Positions 3,479 to 41,560 of a stretch of DNA of 64,000 bases are shown one piece after another. The position numbers and the translations under genes were made by a program. The notes under the pieces were generated by a model. It was not told the origin of the DNA. It ran no database searches and saw only the letters and a list, made by a program, of their open reading frames with translations. Positions within the stretch are counted from its first letter, which is position 1; every line of letters starts with the position of its first letter. Origin of the DNA: a virus; the IMG/VR virus record IMGVR_UViG_3300027741_000001. The stretch is one strand, 5' to 3'.

Positions 3479-3506
3479 TAAGCAGTTTAGACACTTGCTC
3501 AGGTGT
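3479..3506 (-). ncRNA. 28-nt H-type pseudoknot repeat, copy 1
   Basis: ACAC-CUGAGCAA-GUGU-CUAAAC-UGCUUA; P1 ACAC/GUGU, P2 UGAGCA/UGCUUA. Confidence 0.8.
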
Positions 3507-5304: not shown

Positions 5305-5384
5305 TTTGCCTCCTTTGTAGTTAGTCATTACATAAATAATAACTTCTAATCGGCATAAAAAATTCCCGATCTCTAAAAAATAAA

Positions 5385-5412
5385 TGAACCTTTTAGACAC
5401 TTGTTCAGGTGT
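5385..5412 (-). ncRNA. 28-nt pseudoknot repeat, copy 2
   Basis: ACAC-CUGAACAA-GUGU-CUAAAA-GGUUCA; compensatory change in P2 (UGAAC/GUUCA). Confidence 0.8.
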
Positions 5413-5451
5413 GTTCGGCAGAGGGGAAATGAAAGAAACCCTCTCCCAAGT

Positions 5452-5643
5452 CTATTTACGCCTATTACGCTTTCTAATAAATCTAGGAAGCTCGGCAACT
5501 GCTAGTAGCAACGCTACAAACAATAGCAGAAATGCCAAAGTAAATCCAATCTCAAATGCTCGCTGATTATTGTCGGCTATAAATCCATAATAGATACCGC
5601 AACCAGCAGACCATAAACCTAATACTGCCAAAAATGTTTTCAC
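5452..5643 (-). CDS. Two-TM small membrane protein
   Basis: Hydrophobic segments and Arg/Lys tail. Confidence 0.65.
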   Translation of the reverse strand: MKTFLAVLGLWSAGCGIYYGFIADNNQRAFEIGFTLAFLLLFVALLLAVAELPRFIRKRNRRK

Positions 5644-5675: not shown

Positions 5676-5703
5676 TGAGCCTTTTTAGAACTTGCTCAGG
5701 TTC
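5676..5703 (-). ncRNA. 28-nt pseudoknot repeat, copy 3
   Basis: GAAC-CUGAGCAA-GUUC-UAAAAA-GGCUCA; compensatory change in P1 (GAAC/GUUC). Confidence 0.8.
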
Positions 5704-5708
5704 GGCAC

Positions 5709-5936
5709 TTACTTTACTTTCTCGCCAATTGCGATCAGTAATTCAGTTGGAGAAACTTCCAGCTCACGACATAGCACCGCCAAAGTATTTGACGGAATGT
5801 GTCGTTGATTATGAAAGTATCGGCTAAGGCTAGACTTCTGTAAGCCTGTTGCGATAGCGAATTGGTTTAGAGATTTGTATCCCTGTTGCTCGTAGCGAGC
5901 AATAAACCAAGTCCAAGTATCAACTTTTTTTCCCAT
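5709..5936 (-). CDS. XRE/Cro-family HTH transcriptional regulator
   Basis: SLNQFAIATGLQKSSLSRYF...LCRELEVSPTELL HTH pattern. Confidence 0.85.
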   Translation of the reverse strand: MGKKVDTWTWFIARYEQQGYKSLNQFAIATGLQKSSLSRYFHNQRHIPSNTLAVLCRELEVSPTELLIAIGEKVK

Positions 5937-6328: not shown

Positions 6329-6356
6329 TGAGCCTTTTAGACACTTGCTCGGGTGT
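6329..6356 (-). ncRNA. 28-nt pseudoknot repeat, copy 4
   Basis: ACAC-CCGAGCAA-GUGU-CUAAAA-GGCUCA; lies between two small Cys-rich ORFs. Confidence 0.75.
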
Positions 6357-6896: not shown

Positions 6897-7370
6897 CTAG
6901 ATACTCATAACTCCGTATGTTCCAATAACTAGGGATAGAACAATGGCGTAAGGTCCTAGTGGAACGCTAGTTCCAGCCTTAGCCTTACGAATAACCACCC
7001 GATAGAGCGTTGCGACAATGCCAGCAATAAGGCTTACAGCAACCAATACCACCGGCAACCACCAGACAAACCAGCCGATTACTAGGGAACTACCAAAGAA
7101 TAACTTGATGTCCCCCATACCTAATAAGTCATAGTAGTTAGCAAACATACCAGCAATACCGATACCAAACGCAACTGCCAAAGCTAATCCTAATCTCCAC
7201 CACTCTCCACCAGCGAAACTAGCAACTAAGTCGGCAACCAAACTCATAACGATAAATGGCAGGATAATCTTGTTCGGTAGTCGGTGTTCTCTAATGTCTA
7301 TGACGATTAGGGGAATAGCAACGATAGCCAGATAAACCAATGGCATTACAGCGATAAGTGTTGTGTTCAT
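6897..7370 (-). CDS. Prepilin peptidase, A24 family (TadV/CpaA-like, no methylase domain)
   Basis: Multi-TM; IDIREHRLPN (first Asp), GMGDIKL (second Asp), VPLGPY C-terminal motif. Confidence 0.88.
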   Translation of the reverse strand: MNTTLIAVMPLVYLAIVAIPLIVIDIREHRLPNKIILPFIVMSLVADLVASFAGGEWWRLGLALAVAFGIGIAGMFANYYDLLGMGDIKLFFGSSLVIGWFVWWLPVVLVAVSLIAGIVATLYRVVIRKAKAGTSVPLGPYAIVLSLVIGTYGVMSI

Positions 7371-8456: not shown

Positions 8457-8565
8457 TTTTGTTTCTCCTTTTTCGGTGGTTTATTTTTTTTGGTGCTAAC
8501 TAATCTAACCACAACTACCTAAGATTAGTCAAGCTTATTTTCCGGTATGTTCCCTAAATAAAAAA

Positions 8566-8593
8566 TAAGCCTTTTATACACTTGCTTAGGTGT
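8566..8593 (-). ncRNA. 28-nt pseudoknot repeat, copy 5
   Basis: ACAC-CUAAGCAA-GUGU-AUAAAA-GGCUUA; compensatory change in P2 (UAAGC/GCUUA). Confidence 0.8.
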
Positions 8594-8594
8594 G

Positions 8595-8660
8595 GAGCAA
8601 GGGAGAAATGAGAGAAACCCTTGCTCGTTGGCAGTAGTGTTAGGGGGGACTAACTGCCAA
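8595..8660 (-). ncRNA. Tandem hairpins with anti-RBS loops (candidate antisense RNA)
   Basis: Stems GAGCAAGGG/CCCUUGCUC and UUGGCAGU/ACUGCCAA; loops UUUCUCUCAUUUCU and GUCCCCCCUAAC complementary to initiation regions at 4180-4193 and 3977-3986. Confidence 0.6.
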
Positions 8661-9969: not shown

Positions 9970-10239
9970 CTAACTATTTTCTAAATAGCTTTGATACTGC
10001 TCTGTTCTTTCTATTACCCTGATCAGTTTTTTATTGTTGGTTAGGGTAGCAAAATCCATTAGACACTCGGCTCGGTTGTAATACTTTTTTGTTTTTATCC
10101 AAGCTCCGTTTAGTGTTCGGTAAGTCAGGCTTGCTCTAATCTCTGCTCCATACTCGGCAGAATAAGTAAGCTCTAACTTTGTCTTAGCGTTCTCTATTTT
10201 CCAGATCGCTATTCTTGATAGTTCGTAATCAACTTTCAC
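9970..10239 (-). CDS. Hypothetical protein
   Basis: Coupled to upstream gene (GTGA overlap). Confidence 0.6.
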   Translation of the reverse strand: MKVDYELSRIAIWKIENAKTKLELTYSAEYGAEIRASLTYRTLNGAWIKTKKYYNRAECLMDFATLTNNKKLIRVIERTEQYQSYLENS

Positions 10240-10619
10240 TTGGTTTCCCCTTTTTTCATCTCGGCTTTTTCTAGTCTAGTAGCCGATACTAAAACCTGAA
10301 TTTTGTTTCCGTCTGCCAAGCTTAGTCCTAAGCAGTTTCCGTTAGTATCAGTTCCACCTGTAAGGATTACATTACCAACGATTATGTCCGTAGCTCCAAA
10401 ATAATAATTCCAAATAGCAGTTGCTCTGTGGTTGTAAGGTAGTCCGTCTAGTTTGCCTTCCTCGTTTGTCCACATAGTCATAGTTGGCGATAATCTAACG
10501 ATCTCTAAATAACCGCCAACGACTTCCTTGATAACTTCGTATTCGGTTTCGGCAGTAAAGCTCACAACTTCTAGTTCCCCTGCTGTCTTGATAATTAGGG
10601 CTTGCTTTTGATTTTCCAT
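10236..10619 (-). CDS. DUF3846-like protein
   Basis: VVGGYLEIV...NEEGKLDGLPYNHRAT...IVGNVILTG motif set. Confidence 0.8.
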   Translation of the reverse strand: MENQKQALIIKTAGELEVVSFTAETEYEVIKEVVGGYLEIVRLSPTMTMWTNEEGKLDGLPYNHRATAIWNYYFGATDIIVGNVILTGGTDTNGNCLGLSLADGNKIQVLVSATRLEKAEMKKGETK

Positions 10620-11172: not shown

Positions 11173-11200
11173 TAAGCAGTTTAGATACTTGCTTAGGTAT
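11173..11200 (-). ncRNA. 28-nt pseudoknot repeat, copy 6
   Basis: AUAC-CUAAGCAA-GUAU-CUAAAC-UGCUUA; compensatory changes in P1 and P2. Confidence 0.8.
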
Positions 11201-11237
11201 TTAGGCGTTTGCCTATGGTCTTAGTTTAGTGGTTTCA

Positions 11238-12278: not shown

Positions 12279-12306
12279 TGAGCAGTTTATCAACTTACTC
12301 AGGTTT
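12279..12306 (-). ncRNA. 28-nt pseudoknot repeat, copy 7
   Basis: AAAC-CUGAGUAA-GUUG-AUAAAC-UGCUCA. Confidence 0.7.
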
Positions 12307-12604
12307 AGCATTTTTTTCTTTTAGGGAGAGAGAATAAAATACAAAAAAAGAAAACCGGATAGTTATTACCATCAACTCCAATAGGGCTACAATTTTTAGG
12401 TCTGGAAGTCAAGACCCTTAGTTTTTTCTCTTGCTAAGGAACAAGCGTAGTTTAGCGACATACATTGGTCGGATTTCACTAGGTTTTCAGGGTAGTAATC
12501 CCCATACCACCAACACTTGTTCCTGAACGGACACCTCTGGTTCTCCACCTAAAACTAAGACTTCTAGGTTTAGGTTTCGGTATGCCTAGCAAAAGTTTAT
12601 TTAG

Positions 12605-13535: not shown

Positions 13536-14423
13536 TTATTCTAGCGTAGGAACTTCACTATTCAGGGTCGGGTATTGTCTAACTCCCTGATCGTCAAGAA
13601 CCCAAGCTGTCGTTTCATCAAGAACTTCCATTTGCTCGTCAGGGTCGTTCCCCTGTTCCATAGCAAGCTCGTAAGCGTTCTCTGCTGTGTTAGTTCTTAC
13701 TCGGTAAGACTTCTGAATAACAACAATGAACTCTTGTTCATCTCTCGGACAGTCCTTATACCACTCGTCCTCGTCGCTGTCGTTGGCACACCTACAACTG
13801 TCCTCTTGGTCGCTATCGACATAGTCCTTGTGGCTTTGTGGTATGTCCCACTCTTTGTCGATACCATAACTTCCACCTGATCCTGAAAACTCTGCTCCCC
13901 AGCCTTGTTCCTCGGTTGAGTGTAAGTGGAAATGTAGTTCGGGGTGTTGCTGAACCATAGCCCTAAATACAGGTTCAGGGATAGACCAAGCAGTAGAAAA
14001 AGTGTAGCTCAAACTTCTAGTGAGATCGTCTATCTCGTCAAGTTCGGGTGAAACACACTCATCACTAGCGTCCCACTTAGTTCCCCAGTTGCTACTGTTC
14101 CAGCTATACCAGTCATCAGAAGTTTCCTTACTCTCGCCAGTAAAACCTACTCCCTCAACAAAACCAGTAGTTCCGAAATAATCGCCCAGGCTATCTGTCG
14201 GTGGTGCTATGAAGTTCCAAAAAGACATAGGACTTTCATCTGACATTACAGTCAAAATCTTTCGGTCTTTGTCCTCTACCTTAGTAGTAGTTTTGTCCTC
14301 GTTGCGTATCCAGCTTTCAGATAGCCAGCGAGTTTCGTGTTGTTGGCTTGCCTTAGTAGCAAACTTTTTCAGTTCAGCAGGTTCGCCTGAAACAGTTAGA
14401 GAGTTATAGACCCAGTTAGGCAT
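13536..14423 (-). CDS. DUF1281/Api92-like ferredoxin-fold protein
   Basis: MPNWVYNSL, WYSWNSSNWGTKWD, FSTAWSIP motifs. Confidence 0.8.
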   Translation of the reverse strand: MPNWVYNSLTVSGEPAELKKFATKASQQHETRWLSESWIRNEDKTTTKVEDKDRKILTVMSDESPMSFWNFIAPPTDSLGDYFGTTGFVEGVGFTGESKETSDDWYSWNSSNWGTKWDASDECVSPELDEIDDLTRSLSYTFSTAWSIPEPVFRAMVQQHPELHFHLHSTEEQGWGAEFSGSGGSYGIDKEWDIPQSHKDYVDSDQEDSCRCANDSDEDEWYKDCPRDEQEFIVVIQKSYRVRTNTAENAYELAMEQGNDPDEQMEVLDETTAWVLDDQGVRQYPTLNSEVPTLE

Positions 14424-14749
14424 TACTTACCCCATTTCTTTCTCTTACTAGCAGGGTGTCGCATTTGAGAAATCATTTTTGTAATGACTTCGTGGTGTTC
14501 CATTTCGCAAGTGATAACTATGTCGTTTAGTTCCTGATCACCTAACTTTTCAGCTAGAAGTTTCATAGGCTCAAATGCTCTGTAAATAGCAGGGTTAGGC
14601 ATTTCAGCCTGAACTAATGCTGATGAAATCGCACAAAAAATTTGGATAGCAGTCGCAGCTACATCTTGTGGTTCGTTGATTTCATTTTGGATAACAGACA
14701 ATAAGCTCTCGTCCTCGTTATTGTGATCGTGTGTCGGGTTATCGCACAT
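14423..14749 (-). CDS. Hypothetical protein
   Basis: Own promoter (14809), GAAAGGA RBS. Confidence 0.7.
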   Translation of the reverse strand: MCDNPTHDHNNEDESLLSVIQNEINEPQDVAATAIQIFCAISSALVQAEMPNPAIYRAFEPMKLLAEKLGDQELNDIVITCEMEHHEVITKMISQMRHPASKRKKWGK

Positions 14750-14888
14750 TTGGCAGTTCCTTTCATTTCTCGGTTGTAGTTCTAATTTACTTTGCTTTAT
14801 ACAACTTTGTCAAGTTCCTTTTTTATTTTTTTATTCCGAACAAGTCAAGAGAAAGGAAATGAAAACTTGACCTGCTCGGAACTTTATG

Positions 14889-21574: not shown

Positions 21575-22357
21575 TTATGGAATTACTGTAAAAAAGTTTC
21601 CGGTCTCTAAAGCGAGACGTTCGAGGCTTGGAAAGTCTGGAATGCCGGTTACGCTGCTTCCGATGTATCCGATTCTTCGTTGGAAGTTTGCGAAGGCTGC
21701 AGTCGTTTTGTGGTCCCACTCTCCTCGCTTAGCTCCGCGCAAACCAACGGTCATACCGAGTGCAAGTTGGATAGTTGTTACGTACGGGTGCTTGAGTCCT
21801 GGAATGATGACTGAACTTTTAACGAACGGCTTCGTTGGAAGTTTACCTGGGTCCGGATCGCTCCTCTCCTCCTGCTTCGAAAATGTTCGTGAGAAGTTTG
21901 GCCGCGCGAAGGCAAGCACGTCGTAAACATATCGGTTTCGTCTGTAGACGCCATCATTGGCCTGGCTGCCTTTTGGAGTTCCGTTGGAGGTTTGAGCTTC
22001 GATCGTCTGAAACATCCCGTGCTTTAAAAAGTGCTCGACGTCAGTGACGATTCCTACGTGAGGCATACCCAGATCTCCTCCGTTGGAAAAGCTGAAGAAG
22101 ACAATGTCGCCTGTTTTTGGTCGAACGTGCGTCATCCCTCGTTGGAAGTAGTAGCTCAGAGCTGCAGCTGTGTGCACATGGGATGGCAAGTTCAAACGAA
22201 CGGTTCGTGCGATCACGTCGATGAAGCTGCCGTTCCAATCCTTGTCTGGGTACCCAACCAGTTCTCCGTACGTTGAACCTTTGTTCATACGTGCTTGATA
22301 CCCAACGTGGTTACCAGCTTCCCTAAGGAATGCTTCGCGGTTCGCTCTCGTCATCAA
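21575..22357 (-). CDS. CHAP-like domain plus C-terminal peptidoglycan-binding domain
   Basis: YG...W(N)GSF...PKTGDIVFF...HVGIV...TIEA; IQLAL...AFANFQRRIG...TGIP. Confidence 0.75.
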   Translation of the reverse strand: MMTRANREAFLREAGNHVGYQARMNKGSTYGELVGYPDKDWNGSFIDVIARTVRLNLPSHVHTAAALSYYFQRGMTHVRPKTGDIVFFSFSNGGDLGMPHVGIVTDVEHFLKHGMFQTIEAQTSNGTPKGSQANDGVYRRNRYVYDVLAFARPNFSRTFSKQEERSDPDPGKLPTKPFVKSSVIIPGLKHPYVTTIQLALGMTVGLRGAKRGEWDHKTTAAFANFQRRIGYIGSSVTGIPDFPSLERLALETGNFFTVIP

Positions 22358-40959: not shown

Positions 40960-41017
40960 TTGGAGATTCCGTTGCCTAGGACGGGTAGACCGCTTTACGC
41001 TCCTTTGTCTACAAGCG

Positions 41018-41318
41018 TGGAGATGCGGGGAATCGAACCCCGGTCCAATTGACATTCAGTTATTCTTCTACAAGCTTAGGTTTTACCAACCACGGTATTA
41101 CAGGGCACTACGAGAGGATTTGTTCTACTTATTTAAAACCTGACTGCCCACCTAGAACTAGTGCTTTGTCAGGGGCCTAAGCGTTGCGATTAAATCACGC
41201 GGCTAGAGCGAATGCGGAAGTACGTTCAGCATTTATTGTTTTACCACACTTTAAGAATGCGTGGCCGTTTCTGCTTGCTTCACTAACATCAAGACAACTG
41301 TCGAAACCAGTCATCCCC
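41018..41318 (-). ncRNA. ssrA: tmRNA
   Basis: 5' GGGGAUGACUGGUUUCGAC, 3' CGGGGUUCGAUUCCCCGCAUCUCCA, G3-U70 pair; tag reading frame (A)AERTSAFALAA*. Confidence 0.95.
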
Positions 41319-41460: not shown

Positions 41461-41486
41461 GTCATTCTCCTATTGTCGTTACTGCG

Positions 41487-41560
41487 TTGCGGGGGCAGGA
41501 TTTGAACCTACGACCTCTAGCTTATGACGCTAGCGAGCTTCCGAGCTGCTCTACCCCGCG
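41487..41560 (-). tRNA. tRNA-Met(CAT), initiator-like; CCA not encoded
   Basis: CGCGGGG/CCCCGCA with C1:A72 mismatch, GAGC/GCUC D stem, CUAGC-GUCAUAA-GCUAG anticodon arm, GUAGG-UUCAAAU-CCUGC T arm. Confidence 0.93.

Follow-up and report, generated by a model that had tools for sequence, protein, structure and literature searches.

The 64,000-nucleotide stretch of viral DNA analysed here, record IMGVR_UViG_3300027741_000001 of IMG/VR (henceforth, the window), carries genes for a family A DNA polymerase, an SNF2 helicase, a class II ribonucleotide reductase, a transfer-messenger RNA (tmRNA) and a tRNA-Met; it is phage DNA. Judged by its polymerase, its closest named relative is the Actinomycetia phage DSL-LC01 (78% amino-acid identity). 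Between 1 and 26 kb the genes of the window lie on the minus strand, and all of the elements described in this paper are read on that strand, which is the coding strand here. We are concerned with a two-part RNA element at positions 5385-5449, consisting of a hairpin that begins about 5 nt past the UAG stop codon of the open reading frame (ORF) 5452..5643 and, directly after it, a 28-nt H-type pseudoknot. We find that this two-part module is conserved, that it is uncatalogued, and that it forms one physical RNA unit. Its core element, the pseudoknot, belongs to a large uncatalogued family shared by many unrelated phages; this stop-codon-anchored family is a more important object than the two-part module itself.

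The locus and its copies in the window

The hairpin spans 5415..5449 (-) when its outer pairs are included. Its core stem, AGAGGG/CCCUCU, joins positions 5439-5444 to positions 5420-5425 and closes a 13-nt pyrimidine loop, UUUCUUUCAUUUC, at 5426-5438; the hairpin at 5415-5449 folds with -15.3 kcal/mol, at a z-score of -2.8. The pseudoknot follows at 5385..5412 (-), that is, 7 nt from the core stem and 2 nt from the extended stem. It consists of stem 1 (ACAC/GUGU), loop 1 (C), stem 2 (UGAAC/GUUCA), an AA junction and loop 3 (CUAAAAG), and it is matched by the covariance model (CM) of the pseudoknot with 43.9 bits (E-value 3e-8). Directly 3' of the pseudoknot lies a U-rich tract, UUUAUUUUUU (5373..5384 (-)), which could possibly be the 3' end of a transcript, a terminator tail, or the UP region of the next transcription unit. 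A scan for intrinsic terminators found no site at any module, the hairpin at 5420-5444 having a 13-nt loop and then a pseudoknot instead of U's. The pseudoknot together with a U-run might act as a terminator.

The order of hairpin and then pseudoknot recurs in the window, as the earlier note had claimed, strongly at one place and weakly at another. The strong copy lies at 8566-8626. Its pseudoknot (8566..8593 (-); stem 1 ACAC/GUGU, stem 2 UAAGC/GCUUA) is preceded at a distance of 1 nt by a second pyrimidine-loop hairpin (8595..8626 (-)), which has a 9-bp stem and the loop UUUCUCUCAUUUCU at 8604-8617, and the 3' untranslated region (UTR) of this module holds an extra hairpin further upstream (8628..8660 (-)). 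The two hairpins fold together with -27.1 kcal/mol (z = -6.2). After the pseudoknot come a U-run and, near 8531, a sigma-70-like promoter. The loop pattern TTTCTYTCATTTC has exact matches on the minus strand only at 5426-5438 and 8605-8617, while the stems that carry the two loops differ (AGAGGG/CCCUCU versus GAGCAAGGG/CCCUUGCUC). Pattern match and stem comparison thus bear out the claim that nearly the same loop stands on different stems at these two sites. The weak copy lies at 12279-12343, where an A-U hairpin with a long U/C-rich loop (12307..12343 (-)) stands 1 nt before a pseudoknot (12279..12306 (-); stem 1 AAC/GUU, stem 2 UGAGU/GCUCA with a G-U pair). This module reaches only -5.6 kcal/mol (z = -1.3), and 25 of 200 shuffled sequences do as well.

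Other copies have a different hairpin before the pseudoknot, or none. At 11173..11200 (-), upstream of ssb, a pseudoknot with stem 1 AUAC/GUAU is preceded at 2 nt by a tetraloop hairpin, AGGC-AAAC-GCCU (11203..11214 (-)). The pseudoknot at 3479..3506 (-) has no hairpin; it begins 6 nt past a UAA stop codon and is followed by a U-run and a promoter. The one at 5676..5703 (-), with stem 1 GAAC/GUUC, also lacks a hairpin and begins 5 nt past the UAA stop codon of a helix-turn-helix (HTH) regulator gene. A further copy lies at 6329..6356 (-), with the next start codon 24 nt on. A sigma-70-like promoter and a U-run follow 3 of the 7 pseudoknots in the window. Conversely, a lone 17-bp hairpin with a similar loop, UUUUCAUUUCCUUUCU, stands after a 614-amino-acid gene at 14833..14882 (-) and folds with -25.5 kcal/mol (z = -7.2). 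No pseudoknot comes after it; an A-run and then a promoter are found instead, and hairpins of the pyrimidine-loop type can therefore stand alone.

Structure and covariation of the pseudoknot

The pseudoknot is laid out as stem 1 (4 bp), a C, stem 2 (5 bp), AA, the 3' strand of stem 1, a 7-nt A-rich loop, and the 3' strand of stem 2. A degenerate pattern of this kind finds 7 pseudoknots in the window where 0.07 are expected, all of them on the minus strand between 3.4 and 12.3 kb, and the CM matches of the window pseudoknots have E-values from 4e-9 to 7e-5. In an alignment of 60 sequences, 93.7% of the cells are paired and 6 of the 9 base pairs have changed on both sides, a result that no shuffle out of 500 equals. 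The 4 bp of stem 1 are paired in 99.6% of cases, with compensatory changes. The covariance model encodes stem 2 only, and the complementarity of stem 1 was judged from the model's matches. For example, among the lower-scoring matches stem 1 remains complementary with the new sequences AGAC/GUCU, CAAC/GUUG, UAAC/GUUA and ACUC/GAGU; variants among the copies further include ACAC/GUGU, GAAC/GUUC and AUAC/GUAU. Since G-U pairs are tolerated in the stems and A-C mismatches are not, the structure is formed in the RNA of the minus, coding strand.

The unpaired positions C5, A11-A12 and U18-A21 are strictly conserved. The first loop reads C-U-G/A-A-G-C-A-A, and its second position is U in nearly all copies. 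Most members of the family have UAAACU and then G in loop 3, and 4 of the 7 window copies, including that at 5385-5412, have UAAAAG. The first and second bases past the motif are C or U, almost never G. The pseudoknot is compact and probably stabilised by a triplex.

Distribution of the pseudoknot family

A pattern scan of IMG/VR gave at least 118 loci, and the CM search finds 168 matches among the loci listed. Near-identical copies of the hairpin-pseudoknot modules occur in IMGVR_UViG_3300009068_000024, a complete metagenomic phage genome of 137.5 kb, whose pseudoknots are confined to 36.8-43.8 kb; neither the CM nor the pattern finds a copy in DSL-LC01. Among cultured phages the pseudoknot is present in Roseophage SIO1, Lentibacter phages ICBM1-3 and Celeribacter phage P12053L, in each case just after the ribonucleotide reductase gene and with the junction AU rather than AA. 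It is also present in the Clostridium tetani phage phiCT19406B, a prophage, and in the crAss-like phages cr7_1 and cr8_1. In 596 Gb of cellular genomes it is nearly absent, and the few true copies there are prophages or phage contigs. Rfam holds no family that matches the hairpin or the pseudoknot, either at the gathering threshold or at E <= 5 (preQ1-I, pistol and twister included). A full-text literature search for the sequence of the motif returned one unrelated primer only, and topic searches gave nothing specific.

The SIO1-like roseophages (loci L156, which is Roseophage SIO1 22200-22227, L157 and L159) carry a single pseudoknot between the ribonucleotide reductase gene and the glutaredoxin and PhoH genes. 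The annotated start of glutaredoxin in Lentibacter phage ICBM2 overlaps the pseudoknot, and is probably called too far upstream. As for crAss-like phage cr8_1 (L161, MT774384.1 65692-65720), the upstream annotated coding sequence ends within the pseudoknot, its UAA stop codon being formed by the last U of stem 2 and the AA junction. Some relatives have two to three pseudoknots in tandem, spread over no more than 280 nt, and no convincing ORF separates them. One such region, L010:5012-5313 (-), holds three pseudoknots within about 280 nt, of which the first has a pyrimidine-loop hairpin; here too there is no convincing ORF between, and two mini-frames stop at a UGA inside stem 2.

Coupling of hairpin and pseudoknot

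We wish to know whether hairpin and pseudoknot belong together in the relatives, since the earlier note would have been refuted had they not been associated there. We count a stable hairpin as abutting if it reaches -5 kcal/mol or better and ends within 2 nt of the pseudoknot. Such a hairpin precedes 54 of 122 de-duplicated pseudoknots, compared with 128 of 610 random positions on the same strand (odds ratio 3.0, p = 3e-7), and the gap between the two parts peaks at 1 nt. Several kinds of hairpin occur in this place. The tetraloop type, AGGCUUACGCCU, is the commonest and is the one found at the window copy 11173; the pyrimidine-loop type is a minority, with about 10 of the 122.

In the window and the 118 listed loci, the loop pattern is found in 12 distinct hairpins. 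A pseudoknot follows 10 of them at a distance of 0-7 nt, in most cases 0-2 nt, more than chance would give, and only two, both with weak 5-bp stems, stand apart; on both counts, then, the association is borne out. Pyrimidine-loop hairpins stand directly before a pseudoknot in at least 8 distinct contexts, with different, compensating stems. Their stem sequences are wholly different (CUUAGGCAG, UUAGGCGG, GUCUUAGAG, UGGCAGUAG, GAGCAAGGG and AGAGGG), and their loops come in two related forms, UUCCCUUUCUUUC and UUUCUYUCAUUUC. This covariation was read from the listed sequences and is not a formal pair count, MAFFT having misaligned the two loop lineages. A second scan of IMG/VR, for the loop alone and blind to the pseudoknot, gave 21 occurrences in stems of at least 6 bp. 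Ten of these are followed by the pseudoknot, and they include 7 distinct stems, among them a new 11-bp stem in a contig binned as Bifidobacterium. A region at L238:7398-7413 has a 12-bp GC hairpin with the same loop, UUCCCUUUCUUU, and no pseudoknot; AAUAGAAAGGGAAACC, which is complementary to the hairpin's own loop, comes after it. Loop 3 and the next Shine-Dalgarno sequence were each examined as partners with which the pyrimidine loop might pair in the same molecule, and neither did so consistently.

Because loop-conserved hairpins recur in abutting position on varied stems, the two-part module is conserved. The hairpin is a conserved, optional add-on placed directly on stem 1, neither obligatory nor exclusive, and at gaps of 0-2 nt it probably stacks on the pseudoknot.

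Placement relative to genes

From the upstream stop codon to the pseudoknot the distance peaks sharply at 6 nt (21 of 121 pseudoknots), with 7 more at 5 nt and 2 at 4 nt. Nothing lies closer than 4 nt, save four pseudoknots that overlap the upstream ORF. Where a 12-nt hairpin is inserted between stop codon and pseudoknot the distances form a second mode, at 19 nt, and in a 24-nt class it is the pyrimidine-loop hairpin that is inserted, the stop codon falling inside its 5' arm. For 45% of the pseudoknots the start is 4-13 nt past the stop codon, too near for a hairpin to fit between. Towards the next start codon, on the other side, the distances spread widely, with a median of 90 nt. That is, the pseudoknot is anchored to the upstream stop codon and is loose with respect to the next gene. 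A ribosome whose A site holds the stop codon extends about 6 nt beyond it; a spacing of 6 nt would therefore bring the knot as near to the stop codon as possible without its being unwound.

The stop codons before the pseudoknot are UAA or UAG, with UGA in only 3 of 86 cases, compared with 240 of 1065 (22.5%) in neighbouring genes on the same strand (p = 3e-6). Counted by independent gene clusters over the window and loci L001-L118, UGA precedes the pseudoknot in 2 of 37 (P = 0.005). One possibility is that UGA avoidance represents selection against read-through at the leakiest stop codon, with the knot at the ribosome entrance. As to programmed read-through, the extensions would run from 1 to 89 codons with nothing conserved in them, and we consider it unlikely.

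The genes upstream of the pseudoknot fall into 46 unrelated clusters, which include ribonucleotide reductase (RNR), DUF932, HSP20 and SSB-like proteins. On the 3' side the contexts also vary. In about 37% of the pseudoknots, 5-27 nt separate the 3' end from a Shine-Dalgarno sequence; a U-run adjoins stem 2 in about 11%, among them the two strong modules of the window; and in four unrelated contigs (L094:11050, L105:4986, L046:6879 and L060:511) the 5' end of a tRNA (Arg, Glu, Asp and Glu, respectively) lies 3-8 nt past the pseudoknot. What is common to all of these contexts is that the pseudoknot closes the upstream unit. We rejected a riboswitch because of the heterogeneity of the downstream genes, the many copies per region, and those copies that stand before tRNAs or U-runs. 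We also considered a tRNA-like element with a CCA end: C is favoured at the first position past the motif, and some copies then continue to CCA, but inconsistently, and we rejected the idea.

Other features of the window

The tmRNA of the phage lies at 41015-41318 (-) (116 bits) and has the tag peptide AERTSAFALAA; the tRNA-Met adjoins it at 41486-41560 (-). The early region that bears the pseudoknots also encodes a type IV prepilin-peptidase-like protein at 6897-7370 (-) (Peptidase_A24, E = 2e-10), a DUF3846 protein (10236-10619 (-)) and the small HTH regulator (5709-5936 (-)). Between 3000 and 15000 on the minus strand there are many co-oriented promoters of the form TTGAC(N17-18)TAnnnT and very few canonical intrinsic terminators, and hairpins and pseudoknots stand at the places where terminators would be expected.

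Interpretation

Our favoured explanation, which we put forward tentatively and with somewhat less than even confidence, is that the element is a cis-acting roadblock or stabiliser at the ends of cistrons, the hairpin being an optional, stacked accessory. The 60-nt stretch is one copy of a composite RNA structure, encoded in cis within the 3' UTR of a small early phage gene, in which a GC-rich hairpin stands on the pseudoknot; a U-run and the next promoter come after it here. Its pseudoknot would fold as a rigid knot and would survive translation of the upstream gene, since it starts where the leading edge of the terminating ribosome ends. It would form a mechanical roadblock at the gene boundary, blocking exonucleases and possibly also ribosomes or Rho, and wherever a U-run is present the knot would form the 3' end of the transcript. 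The upstream hairpin would lengthen and stiffen the stack; its loop may bind a conserved factor, and would not be a target-specific guide. The tandem arrays of two to three pseudoknots in long 3' regions resemble the duplicated exonuclease-resistant RNAs of viruses, which supports a roadblock.

Several considerations weigh against this explanation. Whereas the fold, its conservation, the coupling of its two parts and the anchoring to stop codons are observed, we infer the roadblock or stabiliser activity from placement and architecture, and its direction could be either of two: RNase J might be kept from the RNA downstream, or 3'-5' exonucleases from the message upstream. The avoidance of UGA is not what a simple stabiliser would account for. 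Nor would stabilisation of a 3' end call for more than a plain GC hairpin, and C5, A11-A12 and U18-A21 may therefore owe their strict conservation to some protein or other machine that recognises them. Finally, the conserved pyrimidine loop has no assigned partner, and 11 of the 21 loop-bearing hairpins from the pseudoknot-blind scan have no pseudoknot after them; most of these have weak A-T stems, and one has a strong GC stem.

If a boundary element of this kind does operate, then one tiny RNA knot marks the ends of genes on long messages in many unrelated phages, whose hosts include roseobacters, clostridia, gut Bacteroidales and probably freshwater actinobacteria. Phage gene expression would then have a general and portable component that is listed in no catalogue. 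The fixed 6-nt offset from UAA or UAG would link the knot to the terminating ribosome in a manner undescribed for bacteria. The hairpin-bearing form indicates that the knot can be extended by conserved-loop modules and hints at a further partner. Cultured phages such as SIO1 carry the knot, which makes its function open to direct test, and a 28-nt roadblock, if it is one, would be a useful insulator for synthetic operons. What is new here is the abutting conserved-loop hairpin as a specific accessory, the 6-nt phasing and the UGA statistics, the placement before tRNAs, and the presence in cultured phages.

A more speculative version of the cistron-end explanation is a long shot in our estimation. 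On this view, early messages would shed the hairpin-pseudoknot unit from their 3' ends as a stable small RNA, since the pseudoknot would withstand exonucleases, and phages would have a counterpart of the subgenomic RNAs of flaviviruses and plant viruses. Its pyrimidine loop would act in trans and lower translation or decay throughout the cell, either by mimicking an anti-Shine-Dalgarno sequence or by soaking up a conserved host factor. The phasing to stop codons and the avoidance of UGA would then reflect contact between knot and ribosome.

Alternative explanations

The alternative that survives best, unlikely as we judge it to be, is that the element is an operator for an RNA-binding factor: pseudoknot and pyrimidine loop would bind a protein that controls the translation, decay or antitermination of early genes. 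The factor might be encoded by the phage, as are RegA and gp32 of T4, or it might be a universal component of the host, for instance ribosomal protein S1 or the mRNA entry site of the ribosome. The unpaired nucleotides that are invariant across phages of four host phyla are what an operator would lead one to expect, as are the 13-nt loop conserved on variable stems, the restriction of the copies to one early region of a 137-kb genome, and a position where the terminating ribosome would touch the pseudoknot. Yet the conserved loop nucleotides are also those expected in a compact pseudoknot of the triplex type, such that structure alone could explain their conservation. Moreover, no protein family is common to the neighbourhoods of the pseudoknots. 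The best, DUF932, is found at 30 of the 118 listed loci, the others being RNR, HSP20 and proteins of unknown function, and no RNA-binding domain was found near the elements.

It is distinctly less probable that the element is a site of mRNA processing, which would be cut, or would direct an adjacent cut by a host RNase, and would so separate the cistrons; together with the hairpin it might even cleave itself, as a small ribozyme would. A pseudoknot 3-8 nt before the 5' ends of tRNAs, where RNase P cuts, would suit such a role, and a hairpin followed by a pseudoknot is the layout of pistol ribozymes as well. No known natural class of self-cleaving RNA, however, is as small as 28 nt, and the hairpin is missing from most copies. 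No ribozyme model of Rfam matches, even at E <= 5, and no conserved candidate for a cleavage dinucleotide was identified.

The element might also be a mobile regulatory cassette, in which a repeat of hairpin, pseudoknot, U-run and promoter provides homology for the shuffling of small early genes, like the PeSL cassettes of T4-type phages. This would be compatible with a function in RNA; we regard it as improbable. A cassette would account for near-identical sequence beside unrelated genes in otherwise unrelated phages, and for the U-run and sigma-70-like promoter that come after 3 of the 7 window copies, but no promoter comes after the other 4 or after most copies in the relatives. The compensatory changes in the stems of both pseudoknot and hairpin, furthermore, indicate selection on RNA folding and not on DNA homology only.

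The earlier note had proposed that the module is a guide with a handle, namely a stable small RNA of 60-100 nt whose pyrimidine loop is a seed directed at ribosome-binding sites (RBSs) of phage or host, the pseudoknot serving as handle or protective cap. Its proposed target is the purine-rich leader GAAAUGAAAGGAA at 14757..14769 (-), which lies 8-20 nt before the ATG at 14749. The loop at 5426-5438 can indeed form the 13 pairs, one of them G-U, that were claimed with the RBS region of the gene 14423..14749. The pairing is not above chance: when composition-matched shuffles of the loop were compared with the 150 predicted start regions of the window, a 13-pair run appeared in 14% of trials (P = 0.14), and the loops at 8604 and 12.3 kb gave p = 0.90 and 0.49, respectively. 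The match is no more than the general complementarity of pyrimidine loops to purine-rich start regions.

This class-wide complementarity can still be set down in favour of a guide, together with the contiguity of the two parts, the U-run after two of the window copies (the layout of small RNAs derived from 3' UTRs), and the hairpin-pseudoknot arrays without convincing ORFs in relatives. The pattern of conservation is the reverse of what a guide would show, however, for the loops are kept across paralogues and phages while the stems vary. The loop at 12.3 kb is replaced by an unrelated sequence in one relative (G003). Most pseudoknots lack a pyrimidine-loop hairpin, and most of the hairpins that do abut a pseudoknot have loops of 3-6 nt, too short to guide; the hairpin at 14833-14882, conversely, has a similar loop and no pseudoknot. 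At L060 the module precedes a tRNA, and other modules have no purine-rich partner nearby. A trans-acting role for a stable hairpin-pseudoknot RNA is favoured by none of the tests made here, and we hold the guide to be very improbable.

Least credible of all is a signal in the DNA, namely a phage-specific promoter with TAAACT as its -10 element. TAAACT does fit TAnnnT, and the motif ends where a transcription start would be plausible, at 3-8 nt from tRNAs and 5-27 nt from Shine-Dalgarno sequences. But UAAAAG replaces UAAACU in 4 of the 7 window copies, and the first two bases past the motif are C or U and almost never G. We reject the reading because the two interleaved sets of compensatory changes, tolerating G-U and not A-C, are strand-specific in the manner typical of RNA, and because the motif keeps a tight distance to the stop codon before it but not to the gene after it.

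Comparison with known systems

The repeated structures at the boundaries of small early genes, often near promoters, recall the PeSL cassettes of T4-type phages and the RNase III hairpins of T7. These intergenic hairpins are thought to set the ends and the stability of mRNAs and to favour gene shuffling. They are plain hairpins of one phage group, whereas the element described here is a sequence-conserved pseudoknot, found in phages of several host phyla and at a fixed offset from the stop codon. Small RNAs with a loop seed, such as RsaE and 6C, likewise have a pyrimidine-rich apical loop able to pair with Shine-Dalgarno regions, but the phage loops are conserved rather than matched to targets, and their complementarity does not exceed chance. 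ToxI, the RNA of type III antitoxin systems, is also a small pseudoknotted repeat unit expressed by phage. The copies in the window, unlike the tandem 36-nt repeats of ToxI, lie 290-3000 nt apart, each after a different gene; no toxin gene was identified beside the pseudoknots, though no search was aimed at genes of the toxN type.

Another comparison is with the pseudoknots of recoding signals. The -1 frameshift pseudoknots of luteoviruses, such as the 28-nt one of beet western yellows virus (BWYV), are H-type, with a very short loop 1 that contains a C and an A-rich loop 3 that can lie in the minor groove of stem 1. Recoding pseudoknots, including that of BWYV and the one at the UAG read-through site of murine leukaemia virus, lie 5-9 nt downstream of the A-site codon. 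The phage knot is likewise 28 nt long and H-type, with a short loop 1 containing C and an A-rich loop 3, and its modal position is 6 nt past the stop codon. It differs in that its spacers have no slippery heptamer, that the extensions of 1-89 codons are not conserved, that it avoids UGA, the leakiest stop codon, and that its hosts are bacteria.

A further comparison, which bears on a roadblock, is with the coremin motif, or xrRNA-C, of beny-, cucumo- and other RNA viruses, which stalls both exonuclease and scanning ribosomes (PMC6546385, PMC10520033). Its first loop reads YGAD or YGNNAD, with a G needed at position 2, and the spacer A16 A17 C18 U19 A20, which is essential, is followed by a second, local hairpin (PMC6546385, PMC10520033). 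Compared by sequence features only, both elements are very small, with a first stem of 3-5 bp (4 bp for stem 1 here); coremin requires the pairing of this stem. In both, the first loop begins with a pyrimidine and ends in AA or AD and is followed by an A-rich stretch with UAAACU, and both are often duplicated and lie in 3' UTRs or intergenic regions. There are also differences. Position 2 of the loop is U in the phage pseudoknot and G in coremin. The 3' strand GYUCA of the phage element pairs back into the first loop, forming the covarying stem 2 of an H-type pseudoknot, and there is no local second hairpin. Most phage members have the UAAACU of the coremin spacer, but 4 window copies have UAAAAG, a change that abolishes coremin function; and bacteria have no Xrn1. 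On these sequence features the phage pseudoknot is, in our assessment, not a member of the coremin family, but by analogy it may work like coremin.

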